A stretch of DNA of 64,000 nt from a virus (taxonomy: Duplodnaviria > Caudoviricetes), in the IMG/VR virus record IMGVR_UViG_3300037067_012588; one strand, written 5' to 3'. The translations under genes and the position numbers were made by a program. This document shows positions 43,338 to 62,340 of this stretch, piece after piece; position 1 is the stretch's first letter; each line of letters begins with the position of its first letter. Under the pieces are notes generated by a model. The model did no database searches and was not told the origin of the DNA. It saw only the letters and a list, made by a program, of their open reading frames with translations.

Positions 43338-43375
43338 TTCACAAAAGAACATCGTCCAGAAGGAGAATTTCTGGA
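43338..43375 (-). promoter_or_regulatory. Repeated intergenic promoter/operator-like motif, copy 1
   Basis: Plus strand TTCACAAAAGAACATCGTCCAGAAGGAGAATTTCTGGA; contains a TCCAGAA-7-TTCTGGA dyad. Confidence 0.7.
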
Positions 43376-43388
43376 AAAAATCTGACTT

Positions 43389-48085: not shown

Positions 48086-48106
48086 ATTCTCACTCCTTCA
48101 AAAATA

Positions 48107-48144
48107 GACATAAGTACATCGTCCATGTCAGGAAAAACTTTCTG
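48107..48144 (-). promoter_or_regulatory. Degenerate copy of the repeated promoter motif upstream of ligA
   Basis: AAGTACATCGTCCA core, about 30 nt upstream of the ligA ATG. Confidence 0.45.
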
Positions 48145-48556
48145 TTATTCCCCTCAAAAACAAAAGAGCCTTCACATATTTTACAGCCGTCTTTGGTTTT
48201 GGGTCACAAGAAAGATTGCAAAGCATGTCGGCAATCTTCACACGACACGCCAATGGATTCGCCTTTATGCCATTGAAATAGTCTGTGTCCTTCTGCCCTT
48301 TGCGCCTCGTCATGGAAGAAACGGCGTCAACAATATACTGAGGAAAGCCAAGAGTCAAAAGCTTTTTTTCATCAACGGTCGTATCTTCAACAACATCATG
48401 CAACCAGCCGACAATTTTACCATCGGTATCGTCAAGGCGAGCAGCAACAGCTTCAGGATGAACAATATACGGCGTGACACCGTCACGCCGAAATTGACAT
48501 CGATGAGCTTCTTTGGCAACCTGTTCCGAAAACAAGACCCAAAGCGTATTATCCAT
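48128..48556 (-). CDS. Mesh1/SAH-like HD hydrolase ((p)ppGpp hydrolase family)
   Basis: AH..Q.R.DG..PYIVHP.AVA...WLHDVVEDT...V..MT...VKIAD...NL. Confidence 0.82.
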   Translation of the reverse strand: MDNTLWVLFSEQVAKEAHRCQFRRDGVTPYIVHPEAVAARLDDTDGKIVGWLHDVVEDTTVDEKKLLTLGFPQYIVDAVSSMTRRKGQKDTDYFNGIKANPLACRVKIADMLCNLSCDPKPKTAVKYVKALLFLRGITESFS

Positions 48557-49385: not shown

Positions 49386-49423
49386 TTCACAAAAGAACAT
49401 CGTCCAAAGGAGAAATTTTTGGA
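49386..49423 (-). promoter_or_regulatory. Repeated promoter/operator-like motif, copy 2
   Basis: TTCACAAAAGAACATCGTCCAAAGGAGAAATTTTTGGA. Confidence 0.7.
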
Positions 49424-49436
49424 AAAAATCTGATTT

Positions 49437-51060: not shown

Positions 51061-51098
51061 TTCACGAAAGAACATCGTCCAGAATGAAAAAATCTTGA
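51061..51098 (-). promoter_or_regulatory. Repeated promoter/operator-like motif, copy 3
   Basis: TTCACGAAAGAACATCGTCCAGAATGAAAAAATCTTGA. Confidence 0.7.
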
Positions 51099-51100
51099 AA

Positions 51101-51718
51101 TTATTTTCGCAATTGCGAAGAATTACTGCGAGGTTTCCCAGTCGTTGACTTCTTTTTCTTTTTGATTCGCCCGTAAACCTCATCCATGTTTCTCATAACA
51201 CAGGACGCAGACAACCAATCAGTTGTCGCAATTCCGTCATCTGGAAGAGAATCAACAGACAATCTCATCAGAACACTTCCTGCGAAAAACATCTCATCAC
51301 GATTCAGGTTGTGCAGTTTTACCTTCCAAAACTCTTCATGAATCCTGCACTCATGAATCTGTTGGAGCTTGATTCCATTGAGATGACCATACGAATGCAT
51401 ATATTCGATATTTGACGCCGCAAACAAAACCTTCTCTGCAAAGCTCTTTTTACTATCGTATACACCTGTCACCGCCATACGCCACAATGAAAGACCATCC
51501 CATATCGCCTTCGAGTATCCAGCCTTGTCGAGAAACAACGCCGTAGCAACGACAATAGCACCAGCCCTCGTATCGTGGCTTTTGCAGATATCATCAATTT
51601 GCTTGATGAGACGTTCTTCTTCCTTCGTTGTGCTGCCAATATAAAGGATATGAAGCTCGTCTGAAATCTTCTTCTCAACCTGAGCCAGTGTTTTCTTGCA
51701 AAAGCAATCAAGAATCAT
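51101..51718 (-). CDS. Hypothetical protein
   Basis: ATG 51718 after GAGGAG; the ORF-track extension to 52048 overlaps the radical SAM gene. Confidence 0.6.
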   Translation of the reverse strand: MILDCFCKKTLAQVEKKISDELHILYIGSTTKEEERLIKQIDDICKSHDTRAGAIVVATALFLDKAGYSKAIWDGLSLWRMAVTGVYDSKKSFAEKVLFAASNIEYMHSYGHLNGIKLQQIHECRIHEEFWKVKLHNLNRDEMFFAGSVLMRLSVDSLPDDGIATTDWLSASCVMRNMDEVYGRIKKKKKSTTGKPRSNSSQLRK

Positions 51719-52545: not shown

Positions 52546-52585
52546 CTCACAAAAGAACATCGTCCAGCAAGGAGAAAATTTATGA
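52546..52585 (-). promoter_or_regulatory. Repeated promoter/operator-like motif, copy 4
   Basis: CTCACAAAAGAACATCGTCCAGCAAGGAGAAAATTTATGA. Confidence 0.65.
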
Positions 52586-52614
52586 GTTTTATTCAGAAGG
52601 CTCTTCAACAGCCT

Positions 52615-53684: not shown

Positions 53685-53722
53685 TTCACAGAAGAACATC
53701 GTCCAAAGAAGAAAATTCTGGA
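53685..53722 (-). promoter_or_regulatory. Repeated promoter/operator-like motif, copy 5
   Basis: TTCACAGAAGAACATCGTCCAAAGAAGAAAATTCTGGA. Confidence 0.7.
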
Positions 53723-53731
53723 AAGATTTTT

Positions 53732-54469
53732 CTACAAACAACCAGAAAACATCTGATCTACCTCTTTGTCCATCTTTTCAACAGGATATACCTGAAGAGC
53801 CATTTTGGGCAATCGTCTAACGAAGAAAATAGCCATATTCGCATCCAGTGCGCCCCTGAAATAACCTTCCTCATGAAGCAGACGCCGATAGATGTTCAAC
53901 TGAAGGCTGTAATGGTTGAAATTGCAGTCATCCAGATGCTTCAGGAATCCGTTCCCACACTGGTATGTGTTCCCGAATTTGATTTCCTTGTTCGTCTTCC
54001 AGTCAAACACACATAGACGACCCTGCTTGTCCTTGAACAGCAGGTCTATAGTTCCTGCAAGCCGATACCTCGGGCTAAAGATAATCTTCTCAGATGCAAT
54101 GAAGCGATAGTTCTTCAAGAGGTCGTTGTCAATGAAATCCCCAACCGTCTTGAAACTTTTCTCATCTTGCTCATCGGAAGGATCAGGCAACGGATTCCCG
54201 AGCAGTTTTGCTTCGGCGAACTCATGAACCCTTGTTCCATATTCCGAGCCTTTGTTCTTTTTGTCTTCCCAATCCTTTTTGACATCTTCAACATTCAGGT
54301 TTCTTTTCGCAGCATATTTCTTTGCGACCCCTTCTGTATCGAACTCTGGAAAATGGTTGTGTATGAACCCAGTGACCGATGTGTAAACAACGCCCTGAGT
54401 GTCAATATACTTGTGGTCTTCCTCGGTGAAGGTGATAACCTCCCCCGATGGATGCTCAGCTTGTTTCAT
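53732..54469 (-). CDS. PD-(D/E)XK (RecB/Cas4-like fold) nuclease without an Fe-S cysteine motif
   Basis: H.Y...SVT...GTRVH...E...SE..I....LAGTIDLL...DWKTNK...YSLQL.IY; 3 nt separate it from the cas3 stop. Confidence 0.85.
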   Translation of the reverse strand: MKQAEHPSGEVITFTEEDHKYIDTQGVVYTSVTGFIHNHFPEFDTEGVAKKYAAKRNLNVEDVKKDWEDKKNKGSEYGTRVHEFAEAKLLGNPLPDPSDEQDEKSFKTVGDFIDNDLLKNYRFIASEKIIFSPRYRLAGTIDLLFKDKQGRLCVFDWKTNKEIKFGNTYQCGNGFLKHLDDCNFNHYSLQLNIYRRLLHEEGYFRGALDANMAIFFVRRLPKMALQVYPVEKMDKEVDQMFSGCL

Positions 54470-54472
54470 TTA

Positions 54473-56695
54473 TCAGCTCCTCGGAAAAACAATATCGTTG
54501 ATGCCAAGCTCGTTGTTGTAAGGACCATCCCAATACAAAACGTCCGACACAGACTTTATATGTTTGATTTTTTCATTGCTATTGCTAATATTGACTCCAA
54601 CTTGATACATCTCGATTTTCTTCATGAATTTCCTATCAGGTTTTATTCCGCTCTGTAGCTGACCGATATACTTCTTTCCAGCGCCATACGGAACCAAGAC
54701 CTGAGAAGACTCCTCATCAACAACACGATACAAATCGCCAACCTTTTCGTAATCGTAGGTTTCGATAAATTTGGATATTTCAGGAGACTTGTCTTGGCAT
54801 AGGTCGACCTGAGTAAGAAACATCGAAAAGAACTTCTCCAGAAAAACTGGGTCATACACATCGATATTCCAATTGTAAGAATTGAGCAACGTCAAAGTCG
54901 CATTAAGCTCCAAAAGCAGAGTCCCTGAGAAAATTTTAATACCATCATCAGGAATAACAACAAACATCCTTCCAAAAGAAAGGAACCCATGTCTGTTCGC
55001 TCGACCAAGCGCCTGAACCAACGATCTTAACGAACCAAAAAAACGAAAGACAGTTGGGAAATCCAAATCAACTCCGGCCTCAACAAGCGAGGTTGAAAAA
55101 ACCAAACACCTCTGATTGGTTTTCAATCTCAGTCGTATCTCTTCCAGTATCTTTTCCTGATGCTTTTTTGCAAGAAACGTGTTAAGCAGGAACAAACCAT
55201 CAGTCGTCCCAGTCTTCTCAAGCATCTTCAAATACATCTCGTATGACTCACACCTTGTGTTTGTTATGCACAAGGTTTGCTCTTTAGACTCACATTTCAG
55301 GATTTTCTCACAGATTTCTTCATACGAGAGTGTATCGGAAACTGATTTCGGAAAAATCACATTGGCACGACGAATCTCTGGCGCTGAAAAAACCTCCCTA
55401 AACCTCGGGTCAACATAAGAACAGCTCACATACCGACTGTAATCGGGCAATGTTGCCGATGACAACAGGTAGGACGTATTGAATATCCTCTGCCACGCAC
55501 TCAACGTTTCAAATGTAACATTCAAAAGATTAGCAGGAATATCTTGAGACTCATCGAAAACAACAACAGAGTTCGCAAAATTATGAAGCTTCCTAAACCG
55601 ACCACCATGCCTCGCATGAAGGCTGTCAAGACACTGAGCCATTGTTGTCACAATAATCGGAGCTTCCCAGTTTTCTCGCAACTGCTTTGAGCGAATAAGC
55701 TCTGTTTCTTTTTCCTCGGGGTTTGAGTAAACCTCGAAATCAATCCCTGAGTGGTCTTCAAGCAAAGCAACGTTGTCACCAAAAGCGTTCCTAATCTCAT
55801 TGGCCGTTTGAATCGCAATCTTAATAAACGGAACAACAATTATCACCCTGTTCTTCTTGTGAGTCTCGGCATGGCGCAACGCCCATCCAAGTTGAGCCAT
55901 AGTCTTACCAACACCTGTCGGATACGGCATCAGATGAAAACCAACAGGAGAACTTCCAGCAGCAACAGACCTCTCGAAAACAATGTTTCTGAGGTCGGTC
56001 ACGGGACTGTTGGCAAACAAAACGCTCTTGGATTTGCGATAGCTATCCAAGAGACAAAAAAGCTTACCCCAATCTGGACGCTCATACATCATCCTCGACG
56101 CAGCAGCCTTCGGGTCAAAAAACATCTCGGTATCAAGACAATCAGCATCAACCAAACAACTTGATATATAACGAATGATAGCACTCATGTCGTGACAGTT
56201 TGTCGGCATAAGCAACTGTTCTTCTTGAGCTTCACGAATGTAATCAAGAAGATTCGGCTCAATAGCGCAAGCCTCCTTAAAACAATCCTCCCAATGACAA
56301 GACATTATATCGTTCGTTCTGAGATGGGCAACTTTGTAAAAATCATTAACCCAAGTATTTCCTGAATAAAACCCTCGATGATGCGCAGCTATTGGGTAAA
56401 ACACCTGCTCTTTGAGATTATTATTCATAGCCGCAAACAAACCCTGAGATTGATGTGCGAAAGAATATGTATCGGTATTGTAAATGAAATCAGAACGACG
56501 ACCGACTTGGTATCTCAGAGACAACTTTCCGAAATCATGTCCTCCACCAACACAACAACACGTTCCTCGCATGGGTATATTTGGTTTATCTCTGAGAAGA
56601 AATCGCAACATTCTTGCAATCACTCCACGAGTATGAGCCAACCAAGATTGATGTTTGCCGTCATGTTCTGAAAAATGACCTATCGGTGTTGTCAT
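54473..56695 (-). CDS. cas3: CRISPR-associated helicase/nuclease Cas3 (N-terminal HD domain)
   Basis: LAH, HDFGK, H, AHH, LVDAD HD motifs; PTGVGKT, DESQ, SAT, STSLVEAGVDLDF, Q..GR.NR.G helicase motifs. Confidence 0.93.
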   Translation of the reverse strand: MTTPIGHFSEHDGKHQSWLAHTRGVIARMLRFLLRDKPNIPMRGTCCCVGGGHDFGKLSLRYQVGRRSDFIYNTDTYSFAHQSQGLFAAMNNNLKEQVFYPIAAHHRGFYSGNTWVNDFYKVAHLRTNDIMSCHWEDCFKEACAIEPNLLDYIREAQEEQLLMPTNCHDMSAIIRYISSCLVDADCLDTEMFFDPKAAASRMMYERPDWGKLFCLLDSYRKSKSVLFANSPVTDLRNIVFERSVAAGSSPVGFHLMPYPTGVGKTMAQLGWALRHAETHKKNRVIIVVPFIKIAIQTANEIRNAFGDNVALLEDHSGIDFEVYSNPEEKETELIRSKQLRENWEAPIIVTTMAQCLDSLHARHGGRFRKLHNFANSVVVFDESQDIPANLLNVTFETLSAWQRIFNTSYLLSSATLPDYSRYVSCSYVDPRFREVFSAPEIRRANVIFPKSVSDTLSYEEICEKILKCESKEQTLCITNTRCESYEMYLKMLEKTGTTDGLFLLNTFLAKKHQEKILEEIRLRLKTNQRCLVFSTSLVEAGVDLDFPTVFRFFGSLRSLVQALGRANRHGFLSFGRMFVVIPDDGIKIFSGTLLLELNATLTLLNSYNWNIDVYDPVFLEKFFSMFLTQVDLCQDKSPEISKFIETYDYEKVGDLYRVVDEESSQVLVPYGAGKKYIGQLQSGIKPDRKFMKKIEMYQVGVNISNSNEKIKHIKSVSDVLYWDGPYNNELGINDIVFPRS

Positions 56696-56744: not shown

Positions 56745-58130
56745 ATTTCAATATACCAGTGGATTTTCATCCACTGGAACAATGCATTCTCGTGAATCTT
56801 TGCCCGTTTTGTCAGTTTCAATATACCAGTAGACTTTCATCCACTGGAACAACATCGTCCGAGAAGCATTTTTTTGACCATAATTCTTTCAATATACCAG
56901 TGGACTTTCATCCACTGGAACAAGAAGCTGCGGACATACTACGGGCAACGTCATGTGCATTTCAATATACCAGTGGACTTTCGTCCACTGGAACCCTTGC
57001 GGCGACCATCCAAAGCATCAAAAGTACCCATATTTCAATATACCAGTGGACTTTCGTCCACTGGAACGGGCTGGTTTTTTGCCGTTTGAAACAAGACACC
57101 AATTTCAATATACCTGTGGACTTTCGTCCACAGGAACATGAGCGAAGCATCATTGAGGTTTCGTCCGCTATTTCAATATACCAGTGGACTTTCGTCCACT
57201 GGAACCGCCGTACCCCCACTTTATAGATAACCTCGCCTGTTATTTCAATATACCAGTGGACTTTCGTCCACTGGAACGTATGCCCTTGCACTTGAGGGCG
57301 TGCCCTTCAACAGATTTCAATATACCAGTGGACTTTCGTCCACTGGAACCTCGGCAAGATATAAGTCAGTCTGTGCCTGTGCCGCTTATTTCAATATACC
57401 AGTGGACTTTCGTCCACTGGAACGTCCATAGGTAGAGCCCAAAGAAAGGAGCCCTGCAATATTTCAATATACCAGTGGACTTTCATCCACTGGAACTGCC
57501 GTTAGCCAAATACTGGCGGCAGGACAGACATTTCAATATACCAATGGACTTTCGTCCACTGGAACCAACATGATGCTTTCTGTGTGTTCGACCGCACAGC
57601 CATTTCAATATACCAGTGGACTTTCGTCCACTGGAACACAACCAAATCACCTGTTGCAACATCAAACTTATTATTTCAATATACCAGTGGACTTTCGTCC
57701 ACTGGAACAAAGGACCGTAAAAACCTGTCCGATACTATGCCGATTTCAATATACCAGTGGACTTTCGTCCACTGGAACAGGGCGGGCGTGTCCTGTCCGA
57801 TGAAGGCTTATTTCAATATACCAGTGGACTTTCGTCCACTGGAACTTTGCACTATCCCATGATTCATGGTAGAATCAGGACAATTTCAATATACCAGTGG
57901 ACTTTCGTCCACTGGAACGTTTTTGAGAATAGCCTCCCAGTGTTTTTTCGCCAATTTCAATATACCAGTGGACTTTCGTCCACTGGAACTCGCATGGGCT
58001 ATGGGGCATACAGGGCGTACAGGGATTTCAATATACCAGTGGACTTTCGTCCACTGGAACTACAGCCCCCAATACCTTCGGCAATCACTCAGATATTTCA
58101 ATATACCAGTGGACTTTCGTCCACTGGAAC
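56745..58130 (-). CRISPR. CRISPR array: 20 repeats of 36 bp, 19 spacers of 31-38 bp
   Basis: Repeat on the minus strand is GTTCCAGTGGACGAAAGTCCACTGGTATATTGAAAT. Degenerate repeats cluster at the 56745 end (trailer), so the leader is at the 58130 end. Confidence 0.98.
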
Positions 58131-58365
58131 CTTACCGCTCTCAAATCACTACATATCAAACACTTACATAGCCACTTGCGAGCGCCTCATCAAAAAGACG
58201 AGGAATCACAAAATTTGTCATCGTTCGATTGTCAAAGAACTCTTCAAACCTATACACACCAAACACTTACAACTTTGCGAGCGCCTCAAACCCACAAAAT
58301 TCAGCACAACCATATAGCATCAAATCAGTTATGTTGAAATTTGTCTGGTTTCTCACAGACACCAA
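58131..58365 (-). promoter_or_regulatory. CRISPR leader with an IHF-like site and a duplicated motif
   Basis: TATCAAACACTTA (58154-58166) fits the IHF consensus WATCAANNNNTTR; TTGCGAGCGCCTCA occurs at 58176-58189 and 58275-58288. Confidence 0.75.
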
Positions 58366-59298
58366 TCAGTCTCTCGCAAGAGAATCCAACATGCACCACT
58401 CGATACCACGAGCCTTACAAAAGGCGTCAATGGTCTCGTGAGAGGTAAATTCAAAATCATCACGACTCTTCGGAAACTCCCCAGACTCTACCAAAGACGC
58501 ATTCAGTTTCGGAAAAAGCAATTTCTTGATGTTGTGAATCTCAGCAAAACGACCCTTTTGAGAATGCTGAAAGACGTACACAGAAATAAGCCTTGACTCA
58601 CCAAGAGCCTTTGAACGTTCCCCCTCGTAAGCCATCCTGAGTGATTCGAAGAAGATGTTCAAATCATCGTCTGAGACACCATTATCAACACCAACCAACG
58701 GTGCATAGTCACCAACGCCAAGATAAACGGCATAAGGAACAAAACAGGTCTTTGCCCACGAATTTATCTTGCCATCAGACCTCGAAGGACCAGTATTGCT
58801 GATACGCTCAATCTCGATTGGATGGCAAGACTTGAAGTCAGTCATCTGAACACTTCCACGAAAAGCCGCACCATTGTTGCAAGTCGTTGCGCCAAAAACC
58901 CTCGACTCCCAGAAATCAGCAAGAAACCTCTTGCGATCAGCAATGATAACGTTCTTCTCATCATCTGTCTTTTTCGGCTTCTTCGGCTTCTTCGTCTTCC
59001 CATCGCCAGCATCAACACCCTCAACAACAGCCGCATCGCTATCTTTTGCAGAACCACCGAGATTGTACATCTTGAACGTATCGTTGAGGTTTGTCCCACG
59101 GTGAGTGAAGCCAACCATCCCATGAGAGTTTTCAGCACAATCACGAATCTTGCGCTTCACGGATACACCACAAACAGACCCAAACCCATCTGAGGTCATC
59201 CTCGGCGCACCTTCGTTGTCAGGGTCCCCGTTCAAGTTCCCATTTACAGCCTCAAGAACAAACGCAAAATCGATGTACTTTTTTGAATCATACTTCAT
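58366..59298 (-). CDS. cas7: Type I-C-like Cas7 (Csd2/Csh2 family)
   Basis: NGNLNGDPDNEGAPR, VSVKRKIRD, W.SRVFGA, GSVQ, VPYAVY. Confidence 0.9.
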   Translation of the reverse strand: MKYDSKKYIDFAFVLEAVNGNLNGDPDNEGAPRMTSDGFGSVCGVSVKRKIRDCAENSHGMVGFTHRGTNLNDTFKMYNLGGSAKDSDAAVVEGVDAGDGKTKKPKKPKKTDDEKNVIIADRKRFLADFWESRVFGATTCNNGAAFRGSVQMTDFKSCHPIEIERISNTGPSRSDGKINSWAKTCFVPYAVYLGVGDYAPLVGVDNGVSDDDLNIFFESLRMAYEGERSKALGESRLISVYVFQHSQKGRFAEIHNIKKLLFPKLNASLVESGEFPKSRDDFEFTSHETIDAFCKARGIEWCMLDSLARD

Positions 59299-59360: not shown

Positions 59361-59888
59361 TCACTCCGACTCTTCGCCATCGTCCTCATCGTCATCGATA
59401 TCATCATCGATGTCATCGTCATTCTCAACAATCGCAGCCACACCAGCCGCAGCATCCTCAGCCGCCTTCTTCTTCTTGTACTCTTCGATATTCTTGTAGT
59501 ACACTTCGATAAAGCTCTTCTTCTCAGAAGCATACCCGAAGTGAAAACTCAACTCCTGAGCAGGTGTAAAACGAACAGGAAAATCACTCGGATTTCCGAA
59601 CTCTGACATGATCTCCAAATACCTTTTCTCGGTTGCATTCGTATACTCACCATTGGAAATGTAATACGTGAGCGTACTGAGATTCGTGGCAAAGAATCTC
59701 CTTGGGCTTGTTGTTGCGCTGAAAATCTTCGTACCCTCGAAATCTGTTGTAGCTGTCACTTTCTGTGTTTTCGATTTTTCCTTGTTAACGTTGTCAGTCT
59801 CACGCCTTGCATTCACAAGCAAGAAGAACAACCGACCAATATCACTCGCCGCCTTGCAACCATCATCAACAATCACACCGTTCGACAT
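59361..59888 (-). CDS. cas11: Putative Cas11c small subunit from an internal in-frame start in cas8c
   Basis: In-frame ATG at 59888 preceded by GGGAAAGGG, just before the GRLF motif; matches the known internal translation of Cas11 in type I-C. Confidence 0.55.
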   Translation of the reverse strand: MSNGVIVDDGCKAASDIGRLFFLLVNARRETDNVNKEKSKTQKVTATTDFEGTKIFSATTSPRRFFATNLSTLTYYISNGEYTNATEKRYLEIMSEFGNPSDFPVRFTPAQELSFHFGYASEKKSFIEVYYKNIEEYKKKKAAEDAAAGVAAIVENDDDIDDDIDDDEDDGEESE

Positions 59889-61373
59889 CGCAAACCCTTT
59901 CCCAACAAATAACCTCGACAAAACAAGACGCATGGCAACCATCGCAGAAGGACGAGTAACAGCACAAGACCTACGACGGTTTTTCAACAAGCCATCAACA
60001 AGAAATCTTGGAATCGGTAATACTTTGACATTGCCTTGAGAATCAAGCGGAGCAGAATTCAACATAAAGCTGAGAAATTGTTGAATGTGAGCCTTCAAAG
60101 GTGGCTCAGTTTTCTTCCCACCTTCATCTTCTTTTGCTTTTGCCTTCCTGTAGGTTCGCTCAACCTTACCAGAATCGTCAACTTCTTCATCCCAAATTCC
60201 AACGAAAAGCTCATCCATGAGATATTTCATGACAGGAATTTTTTTAAGTTCCGAGATCAAAAAGTTTTCACCAAGGTCGTTGTAAATCATTCGCAGCGAG
60301 CGAACGAGGTCACTCACAACAACGTCATCAACCGACACACAAACTCTCGTGCTTGCCCCTCCAATAGAAACCATTGCAACGGAGCACGTTTCAGGCGCAA
60401 TCGTATCCATCGTGGAATTCGGACTCTGGATGGACAAAAACCTCGAAAGATTTATCGCTGGGTCAAGAGACTTGAAATAGCCCCACACGTCATCATCGCA
60501 CCTGATAAGCATCATGTCGCCGTTTGGAAGTTTCACTCGACGATTTTTGTTTGAAAGGAGATCGTAGAACGACTGCTTTATCTTGTCTGAACAAGTCACA
60601 CAGATTGAAGAACTCTGCATTTTTTTGAACCCATGAAACCATGTAGAGTTGTCGCTGAACGAAGCAATGGAAGTTCCCGTCGATTTTGCACCGGAAAGGA
60701 ATTTGCTTGCCTTCAAGATTGGAAGCTTCCTGACAAATTGCCCCTCTTTCCCGCAACAAGGGCAGAAGCCAAAAACAATTTTGGCGTTCTTCCCAGAGCC
60801 AACAACCAAAGCATCCTTGCGGTTCTCCCTGAAAAACACACTCCAAAACTTTATGAAGTCTGGGTCGTGAACGAGCGGAAGTCCATTTGCATCATCGACA
60901 GACAACGCAACACGAATGGAATCTTTTTCCTTGTTTGTTATTTCAAGAATCTTTTTCTTCCACTCATCGTCAAGCGGCTGAGCGACAACATTTGCCGCCG
61001 ATAAAATTTTATCGGCAAGAACGTCGTACCCAGCACCTCTTGCGTGCCCAGCGAGCTCTCGATACAGATTAGGGTAAGACTTCGAACCCGGAGTCCAATT
61101 TGAAAACAAACGAGTCATGTCATCACAAAAAAACTGAGTCGACGAAAGCCCTTTTTCTCTCGATAACTCCAAGAATCGAGGAGCACGAAGGCTTGGACGT
61201 TTTTTGTGAGCCCCTTTACGAGTTTCTTCACGAGTCTGAATGTCAAGAACTCCAACAATCTTGTTGTTTTCGATGAGAATTGTCGCATAGACAAGCTCTT
61301 CATCAAAAGCGACATAATCGAAATTTGGCTTCGGGTTCTTGTCGAAGCTCTCAACCAACCATTTTAACGACAA
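59361..61373 (-). CDS. cas8c: Type I-C large subunit Cas8c (Csd1), divergent, with acidic tail
   Basis: R..G....FFCD, HD..F..FW, CPCCG....R..P..K....GA.S.G.SI.SF, GRLF, FP..F....Q..F.FGY; located between cas5 and cas7. Confidence 0.8.
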   Translation of the reverse strand: MSLKWLVESFDKNPKPNFDYVAFDEELVYATILIENNKIVGVLDIQTREETRKGAHKKRPSLRAPRFLELSREKGLSSTQFFCDDMTRLFSNWTPGSKSYPNLYRELAGHARGAGYDVLADKILSAANVVAQPLDDEWKKKILEITNKEKDSIRVALSVDDANGLPLVHDPDFIKFWSVFFRENRKDALVVGSGKNAKIVFGFCPCCGKEGQFVRKLPILKASKFLSGAKSTGTSIASFSDNSTWFHGFKKMQSSSICVTCSDKIKQSFYDLLSNKNRRVKLPNGDMMLIRCDDDVWGYFKSLDPAINLSRFLSIQSPNSTMDTIAPETCSVAMVSIGGASTRVCVSVDDVVVSDLVRSLRMIYNDLGENFLISELKKIPVMKYLMDELFVGIWDEEVDDSGKVERTYRKAKAKEDEGGKKTEPPLKAHIQQFLSFMLNSAPLDSQGNVKVLPIPRFLVDGLLKNRRRSCAVTRPSAMVAMRLVLSRLFVGKGFAMSNGVIVDDGCKAASDIGRLFFLLVNARRETDNVNKEKSKTQKVTATTDFEGTKIFSATTSPRRFFATNLSTLTYYISNGEYTNATEKRYLEIMSEFGNPSDFPVRFTPAQELSFHFGYASEKKSFIEVYYKNIEEYKKKKAAEDAAAGVAAIVENDDDIDDDIDDDEDDGEESE

Positions 61374-62002
61374 AGCGACACCTCCTTCTTTGCACCTTCG
61401 TAATCAATCCATCCATCGACCATTTTCGCATCAAAATAAACAGGCGGAATCGAAGGGCGAAGTCTGTCTATTCCGTAATACAACCAACCAAGATCGAGCG
61501 TTTGTCCACCCGTCAACTCCCGAGCCTCATCCAACTCAAGAACCCGAAAGAACGCACCGTAATCCGAACATCCAAAACAAGGCATTCCTTTTTCTGCTGT
61601 CCCTGTTTTTGCGTTCTCCATGAACATGGCAAAGTATTTGTCTACCGTACAATCCGCACGCCTTGACTCGTCAATGTTTTCCTCAATCAACTCGATTCTG
61701 GAAATAGTGACAAAATCTGGGTGCATCAACAACCTCTTGCACCTTTGTTGTGGCTGGATGTGCGAAATTTCCTTGAACTCGTTGTTCTTCACAGACGAGT
61801 AAACGAATGGATGCCGAATGAAAACATCCTCAACAACAAAACGAAACTGAGGCTTTGTGTGTATCTTGTAGTGCATACCCTCAACTGCAGACGCCGAGGG
61901 TACGCATTGCGATGATGGGTCAGAATCCGTCATCGGAATCGTCCACAAAGCAAAGTCACCCCAAAAATGCATCGCCACACGCCTTGCGCTGTCTCTCTTC
62001 AT
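61364..62002 (-). CDS. cas5: Type I-C Cas5 (Cas5c/Cas5d), divergent
   Basis: WGDFALWT.P, P..SA..G....I..KP, NE, QQR, P.FGC..Y, DLGW...ID, P..F.A.M.DG.I. Confidence 0.85.
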   Translation of the reverse strand: MKRDSARRVAMHFWGDFALWTIPMTDSDPSSQCVPSASAVEGMHYKIHTKPQFRFVVEDVFIRHPFVYSSVKNNEFKEISHIQPQQRCKRLLMHPDFVTISRIELIEENIDESRRADCTVDKYFAMFMENAKTGTAEKGMPCFGCSDYGAFFRVLELDEARELTGGQTLDLGWLYYGIDRLRPSIPPVYFDAKMVDGWIDYEGAKKEVSLCR

Positions 62003-62340
62003 AGTCAACTCTCTTTCTTACACCTTGATTTTTCCAAAATGAACAATGTTTTTGCCTTTGGTGTATTTTTATACGAAGCAAGGAAGCCTTTTTTTTTGAC
62101 GAATTTCTGTTTTCTTCAAAAATATGCGAAAAACCTTCCACTCTAATCGTGCTCCCCTTGCAAGACTTCCTCGCCTCTATCCTAAATGGGGCTGCCGATG
62201 ACTTCCGCTGACAGATTTCTTCGTTTATTTTGTTAATTTCTTCATTCTTGCCTTCAGGCTCTTTATCGCCTCTATTCTTAAAGGAGTTCTTGTTGGTTCA
62301 AACTGACAGAAATCTTCGTTTTTTTCAAAATCTTCCTGAT

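Follow-up and report, generated by a model that had tools for sequence, protein, structure and literature searches.

The cas genes and the array

The window, by which we mean the whole stretch of 64,000 nucleotides analysed here (IMG/VR record IMGVR_UViG_3300037067_012588), belongs to a phage genome of ∼ 345 kb; when its Cas7 is looked up by exact match, no protein but Cas7 itself is found, on a contig of 344,634 bp. The left 35 kb of the window encode collagen-like tail fibres and other virion proteins. The CRISPR-Cas locus lies on the minus strand, as does every gene around the spacer discussed below, with the order cas5, cas8c-like, cas7, leader, array, cas3 and PD-(D/E)XK nuclease:

61364-62008, minus strand: cas5 (Cas5c/d-like, divergent; family profile matches)
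59361-61373, minus strand: cas8c/csd1-like large subunit (divergent; family profile matches)
58366-59298, minus strand: cas7/csd2-like gene (family profile matches)
58131-58365, minus strand: leader, 235 nt from cas7 to the first repeat, holding a duplicated block of ∼ 103 nt
56745-58130, minus strand: CRISPR array, 19 unique spacers (31-38 nt) set between 20 repeats (36 nt)
54473-56695, minus strand: cas3 (HD domain and helicase), beginning 49 nt past the last repeat
53732-54469, minus strand: PD-(D/E)XK nuclease, downstream of cas3 (family profile match)

The best Pfam and NCBIfam matches of the module are to type I-C families, namely Cas5d (E = 2.8e-12), Csd1 (E = 3.4e-9) and Csd2 (E = 2.5e-29), all of which score far under the curated cut-offs. 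The Cas3 core (cas3_core) reaches 122.9 bits against a cut-off of 102.45; cas3_HD (E = 2.3e-8) stays under its own cut-off, and DEAD and Helicase_C domains are present in the same product. Because all family scores except that of the Cas3 core are far under the curated cut-offs, we describe the CRISPR-Cas system predicted here as a divergent type I-C-like interference module, and it is presumably an active one. Among the window ORFs that were scanned there was no match to Cas6 and no adaptation module (cas1, cas2, cas4); the PD-(D/E)XK nuclease alone follows cas3. A word-seeded search of 5.8 billion proteins, within a near-length range of 170-543 aa, returned no relative of Cas7 at E ≤ 1e-10 other than itself, and no relative of Cas3 was found in IMG/VR. 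Cas7 matches the Cas7/Csd2 profiles, yet the module is unusually isolated in sequence space.

Two further observations concern the flanks of the module. The cluster of the nuclease at 90% identity contains an 84-aa fragment, MFA5365786.1, from a 4.1 kb contig of a Candidatus Bathyarchaeia MAG; the contig is probably of phage origin and mis-binned into that MAG. The gap upstream of cas5 (62165-62325) holds two copies of an element of ∼ 60 nt (AACGAAGAWWTCTGTCAG ... ATAGAGGCGA), ∼ 96 nt apart, which may have a role in regulating the cas operon.

Read on the minus strand, the repeat has the sequence GTTCC...ATTGAAAT. Its fold is a 9-bp stem capped by a GAAA loop and followed by an 11-nt tail, UAUAUUGAAAU (-17.1 kcal/mol, z = -6.1). 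A stem with 11 unpaired nucleotides is the layout of the Cas5d type, in which the tail would become the 5' handle after the predicted cleavage. In the repeat at 57103-57137 two bases are changed (A to T and T to A) and the 9-bp stem stays paired; since this change is compensatory, the hairpin appears to be under selection. Substitutions are found in three repeats at the low-coordinate (trailer) end and in two scattered ones, those at the trailer end carrying one or two each. The strand of the cas genes, the hairpin with its 11-nt tail, the compensatory repeat and the decay of the repeats at the trailer end together place the crRNA on the minus strand. No Rfam family matches the repeat, and a scan of GTDB genomes for it, seeking a host array, gave unrelated coding sequences only.

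The leader contains, at 58141-58271, a block duplicated at a spacing of ∼ 103 nt (82% identity over 28 nt, the flanks being longer). A sequence on the minus strand of the leader (∼ 58205-58229), GAACGATG...TTTTGTGA, may be a variant of the motif described below and could be the promoter of the array.

The spacer at 56851-56885 and the motif family

The spacer of interest sits close to the cas3 end of the array:

56851-56885, minus strand: spacer 2, 35 nt, second from the trailer end, between two 36-nt repeats

As the array is read on the minus strand and its trailer is at the low-coordinate end, this is the second-oldest of the 19 spacers. On the plus strand it opens with AACATCGTCC; in crRNA sense it reads AATTATGG...GGACGATGTT, and its last 10 nt are identical to the core of a motif that recurs in the window. 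AACATCGTCC is present six times, always on the plus strand, at 43348, 49396, 51071, 52556 and 53695 and in the spacer; the count expected from shuffles is 0.19, and none of 100 shuffles reaches six. The preliminary description had quoted a 35-nt spacer that starts with the 10-mer of this motif, and both the sequence and the five other copies were found as it gave them. It had also regarded the shared block as PAM-distal in crRNA orientation. The strand evidence agrees: because the crRNA is the minus strand, the 10-mer occupies spacer positions 26-35, the PAM-distal end. We considered a plus-strand crRNA, in which the 10-mer would lie in the seed beside a conserved AAG, and rejected it, as the hairpin would then be followed by a handle of just 3 nt, and as neither the strand of the cas genes nor the polarity of repeat decay agrees with it.

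The copies of the motif outside the spacer are as follows:

53686-53729, minus strand: promoter-like motif copy, exact core at 53695-53704
52547-52590, minus strand: promoter-like motif copy, exact core at 52556-52565, ahead of a gene for a radical SAM protein
51062-51105, minus strand: promoter-like motif copy, exact core at 51071-51080
49387-49430, minus strand: promoter-like motif copy with its core at 49396-49405; no copy matches the spacer better without gaps (22/35)
48106-48149, minus strand: degenerate copy of the motif (GGACGATGTA), ahead of the gene for the NAD-dependent ligase
43339-43382, minus strand: promoter-like motif copy, core at 43348-43357, with a 7-bp dyad TCCAGAA/TTCTGGA

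In gene sense the family consists of an A/T-rich stretch, TTCCAR, ∼ 13 nt rich in T and C, GGACGATGTT and CTTYYGTGA, and we write it as TTCCAR-N13-GGACGATGTT-CTTYYGTGA with an invariant core, GGACGATGTT. The five non-spacer copies that carry this core lie in short gaps between minus-strand genes. Each follows directly on the stop codon of the upstream gene, and a minus-strand start codon, served by a good ribosome-binding site, lies 32-54 nt downstream. Judged by this position, a promoter-like function is the most probable one for the motif, and we hold it with reasonable confidence. The copy at 52547-52590 has the weakest upstream half and has an orthologue in a related metagenomic locus (L026). 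Two other assignments were tried and rejected. Consensus scans for sigma-70 promoters gave chance counts and no match at the motif copies, and the copy at 43348 is the only one that passes a terminator pattern, so that a terminator does not serve as a general reading.

It is unlikely that the spacer shares the 10-mer by chance alone. Some 990 10-mers from the 19 spacers (both strands), multiplied by four invariant motif 10-mers and divided by 4^10, give a probability of 0.4%, which the post-hoc choice lifts to 1-2%; the earlier rough figure of ∼ 1% was thus a fair one. The likeness over the full length had been overstated. The 'about 25/35' reported against the copy at 49396 is right as arithmetic (22/35 ungapped, 26/35 with two gaps), but this identity is at chance level, since shuffled spacers reach 22/35 in the window 38% of the time (P = 0.38). 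When the gapped alignment is extended to eight copies, p is 0.06 for the best of the eight scores and ∼ 0.01 for their mean.

A position weight matrix (PWM) was derived from eight motif copies that are independent of one another; the window supplied five of them and a relative three. The remaining 25 nt of the spacer score 0.25 bits on it; p is 0.006-0.009 when window sequence or shuffles serve as the null and 0.026-0.046 when AT-rich window sequence does. In leave-one-out scoring seven genuine copies reach 17-26 bits and one 0.5, which puts the extension level with the weakest genuine copy and far under the other seven. A TGGTCA/GGTCAA box in the spacer stands in register with the TTCCAR of the family, and a T/C-rich run precedes the core. 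In all nine copies CTTYYGTGA is conserved to the same degree as the core. The spacer stops at the 10-mer and so lacks this block, with repeat sequence in its place (3/11 matches). This loss is expected if a 35-nt prespacer was cut at that point and therefore argues only against the spacer as a working promoter. The GC content of the spacer is 0.34, that of the promoter-like regions 0.26-0.37 and the mean of the other spacers 0.51. We estimate that the 25-nt extension contributes a likelihood ratio of ∼ 3 towards a divergent member of the family, with which it is compatible.

Relatives of the phage and searches for targets

The spread of the motif was followed with its extended core, the 19-mer GGACGATGTTCTTYYGTGA, which joins the core to the downstream half, among 241 million metagenome records. 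It gave 52 matches, 48 of which fall in unrelated (bacterial) coding sequences; the full promoter-like architecture is present in the other four, all from sample Ga0172381. Two of these four contigs are syntenic with the window at 84-97% identity and two have no window counterpart. The motif is absent from IMG/VR. It is likewise absent from 22 kb of syntenic DNA in a distant relative, a 318 kb contig with the same ligase-DFP-flavoprotein-M23 order and a ligase identity of 44%. Because true copies among the metagenome matches came only from Ga0172381, and neither the distant relative nor IMG/VR has any, the motif is a mark of a narrow lineage.

Kin fragments are also present in Ga0376279 and ERZ27247350. 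A fragment in ERZ27247358 is near-identical to the phage (100% over 4,196 bp), and SRR18595300 contains exact protein matches to it (proteins only). Since relatives of 73-93% identity, one of them with cas3, occur in other samples, kin that could co-infect exist; judged from these contigs, members of the narrow lineage co-occur in several environments. Within Ga0376279 (L068, Ga0376279_0143685, and L060, Ga0376279_0029369) the cas3-nuclease region is 93% identical and the ligase region only 73%, which points to mosaic divergence, to a CRISPR module exchanged among kin or to the presence of two different relatives in the sample.

The preliminary description proposed a search of the genome and of kin for a protospacer with a TTC-like PAM. 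None was found in the window, in the fetched kin loci or in the databases, and TTC is not present at the PAM position of any of the nine motif copies. For the spacer at 56851-56885 the searches covered IMG/VR (exact 22-mer, and a pattern of positions 1-23), the JGI metagenomes and GTDB genomes (a 29-nt pattern with every sixth base free) and, by blastn-short, the window and all fetched loci; none of them returned a protospacer. The whole array gave no protospacer by blastn against INPHARED and PLSDB, and the leader-proximal spacers 17, 18 and 19 are absent from IMG/VR. Two to three mismatches have been allowed elsewhere for decayed spacers at the old end of arrays (PMC7162821).

When all 19 spacers were compared with the 62.6 kb of the window outside the array, none showed similarity above chance. 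The mean GC content of the spacers is 0.50 versus 0.45 for the window (p = 0.007), and most spacers seem to be drawn from DNA richer in GC than this region of the phage. Because of the higher GC content and the lack of window likeness, most spacers do not derive from homologues of this genome region, and, since the mean spacer GC exceeds that of the window, targeting of kin is not the general theme of the array.

Spacer 18 (57990-58024) is something of an exception, being phased at 9 nt in the manner of a collagen-like Gly-X-Y repeat, in antisense. It shows dozens of phased partial matches to the phage's own tail-fibre genes (18.5-20.4, 23.3 and 26.5 kb), with 10-12 of 12 seed positions and at best 23/35 overall. 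This suggests a collagen-like fibre gene of another phage as its target.

Origin of the spacer and comparison with known systems

The reading that we prefer, and to which we give about an even chance, is that the spacer is an ordinary, old interference spacer captured from one copy of the lineage-specific promoter-like element in a phage that is kin to this one. Both its origin in such a motif and TTC as the PAM are what we infer from the sequence. The crRNA would comprise an 11-nt 5' handle, the 35-nt guide and a 3' hairpin, and would lead Cascade and Cas3 to the putative intergenic promoter of a competitor. The phage's own copies would be spared, having only the PAM-distal 10 nt in common with the guide, mismatches in the seed and no TTC PAM. 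An origin in the promoter of a related phage had already been put forward in the preliminary description. It gains from the existence of motif-bearing kin, from the restriction of the motif to one lineage, from the fit in GC content and from the 25-nt extension, which beats ∼ 95-99% of null sequences on the eight-copy matrix. It loses from the missing protospacer and from the weak statistics past the 10-mer. A further point against it is that three to four of the 19 spacers should resemble the window if most had come from homologous kin DNA, and none does. If true, a huge phage would be directing a CRISPR system of its own against a regulatory element found in close relatives alone, a case of warfare within a lineage and not against unrelated phages.

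The spacer may instead derive from unrelated AT-rich DNA and end by accident in the 10-mer of the motif core, which we judge unlikely but give appreciable weight. With 128 kb of sequence to match, some three shared 10-mers are expected for any 35-mer, so that only the identity of this one is special, and it was picked post hoc; the full-length identity (P = 0.38), the best gapped alignment (p = 0.06) and an extension p of only 0.03-0.05 against AT-rich window sequence are all in keeping with accident, as is the occurrence of GGACGATGTTCTTYYGTGA in unrelated bacterial coding sequences in 48/52 metagenome matches. Set against this are the probability of ∼ 0.4% that one of the four invariant motif 10-mers lands in any spacer, and the extension, the register of the box and the GC content, which all lean to membership of the family. 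An origin in the phage's own DNA, from a motif copy outside the window that is tolerated for want of a working PAM or has since mutated, seems improbable to us. Own DNA is the most abundant substrate in an infection, and the spacer, like the repeats on either side of it, is old and shows slight decay, but a perfect self-target would be lethal with an intact cas3 and the five window copies do not match. Moreover, the 13 differences from any copy seen are more than drift can explain, because the trailer repeats differ by only 1-2/36 nt.

Readings in which the spacer was kept as a regulatory element, either as a guide to a PAM-flanked promoter of the phage that times a class of genes or as the start site of cas3, would mean that it is not a relic of immunity; we consider them very improbable. 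In the first, the crRNA would steer Cascade to one or more of the phage's own promoters in the manner of CreR/CreA, with repression and no cleavage. Repression of promoters by crRNA-like RNAs of partial complementarity is established (10.1101/2023.03.10.532045), slightly degenerate repeats flank the spacer, which lies beside cas3, and the common block is a promoter-like core. The known cases, however, pair in the PAM-adjacent seed, whereas the 10 nt shared here are PAM-distal, and the unit belongs to the main array and is no stand-alone mini-array. At the PAM positions of the nine motif copies we find GAA, AAT, GAA, TCA, TCA, TTT, AAT, GAT and TGG, none of them TTC, and 3-5 of 8 seed positions match. 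A seed-anchored scan of the whole window gave nothing for this spacer beyond what other spacers get. As known crRNA-like regulators act through a PAM-adjacent seed, guidance of Cascade to an own copy for transcriptional control, the other possibility raised in the preliminary description, has no support in the accessible sequence (no TTC and at most 5/8 seed matches at nine copies), and we give this reading hardly any weight. Slighter still is the prospect that the promoter-like spacer, ∼ 155 nt upstream of the cas3 start, drives cas3 from inside the array. It is oriented like all motif copies and co-oriented with cas3, and the 49-nt gap upstream of cas3 holds no recognisable sigma-70-type promoter (scan matches at chance); the conserved CTTYYGTGA is, however, replaced by repeat sequence (3/11 matches), and read-through of the array transcript is a simpler source of cas3 expression. 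Even taken together, the guide and the internal promoter remain improbable.

With capture from a kin promoter as the preferred reading, three known systems offer a comparison. The type I-F CRISPR-Cas system of Vibrio phage ICP1 is a complete, phage-borne interference system, used against a mobile element that competes for the same host. It has cas1 and cas2/3, it targets a satellite (PLE) and not kin phage, and its targets are known and tested. The interference module described here is likewise phage-borne.

CreA/CreR guides use PAM-adjacent seed pairing inside the regulated promoter and occur as stand-alone mini-arrays (10.1101/2023.03.10.532045; PMC9458426). The spacer at 56851-56885 resembles them as a spacer-like segment between degenerate repeats with likeness to a promoter region. 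It differs in that its common block is PAM-distal and has no PAM, and in that the unit lies within the main array.

[quoted passage not shown] The present locus is like these I-C loci in being carried by a phage of > 200 kb with a Cas5d-type protein, a Cas8c-like protein, Cas7 and an array, and with no adaptation genes nearby. It departs from them in several respects: for the spacers searched no target was found here, and Cas7 is without a relative at E ≤ 1e-10; a true HD-helicase Cas3 is encoded, whereas the published I-C variant has a helicase in its place; and the array lies between cas7 and cas3 with 19 spacers, compared with a median of six repeats in the published loci (PMC7162821). Arrays directed against other phages have already been published for huge phages; as the searches gave no target, the spacer itself adds little past a lead and is a minor curiosity. 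The more substantial object is the very divergent I-C-like module, with its array set between cas7 and cas3.
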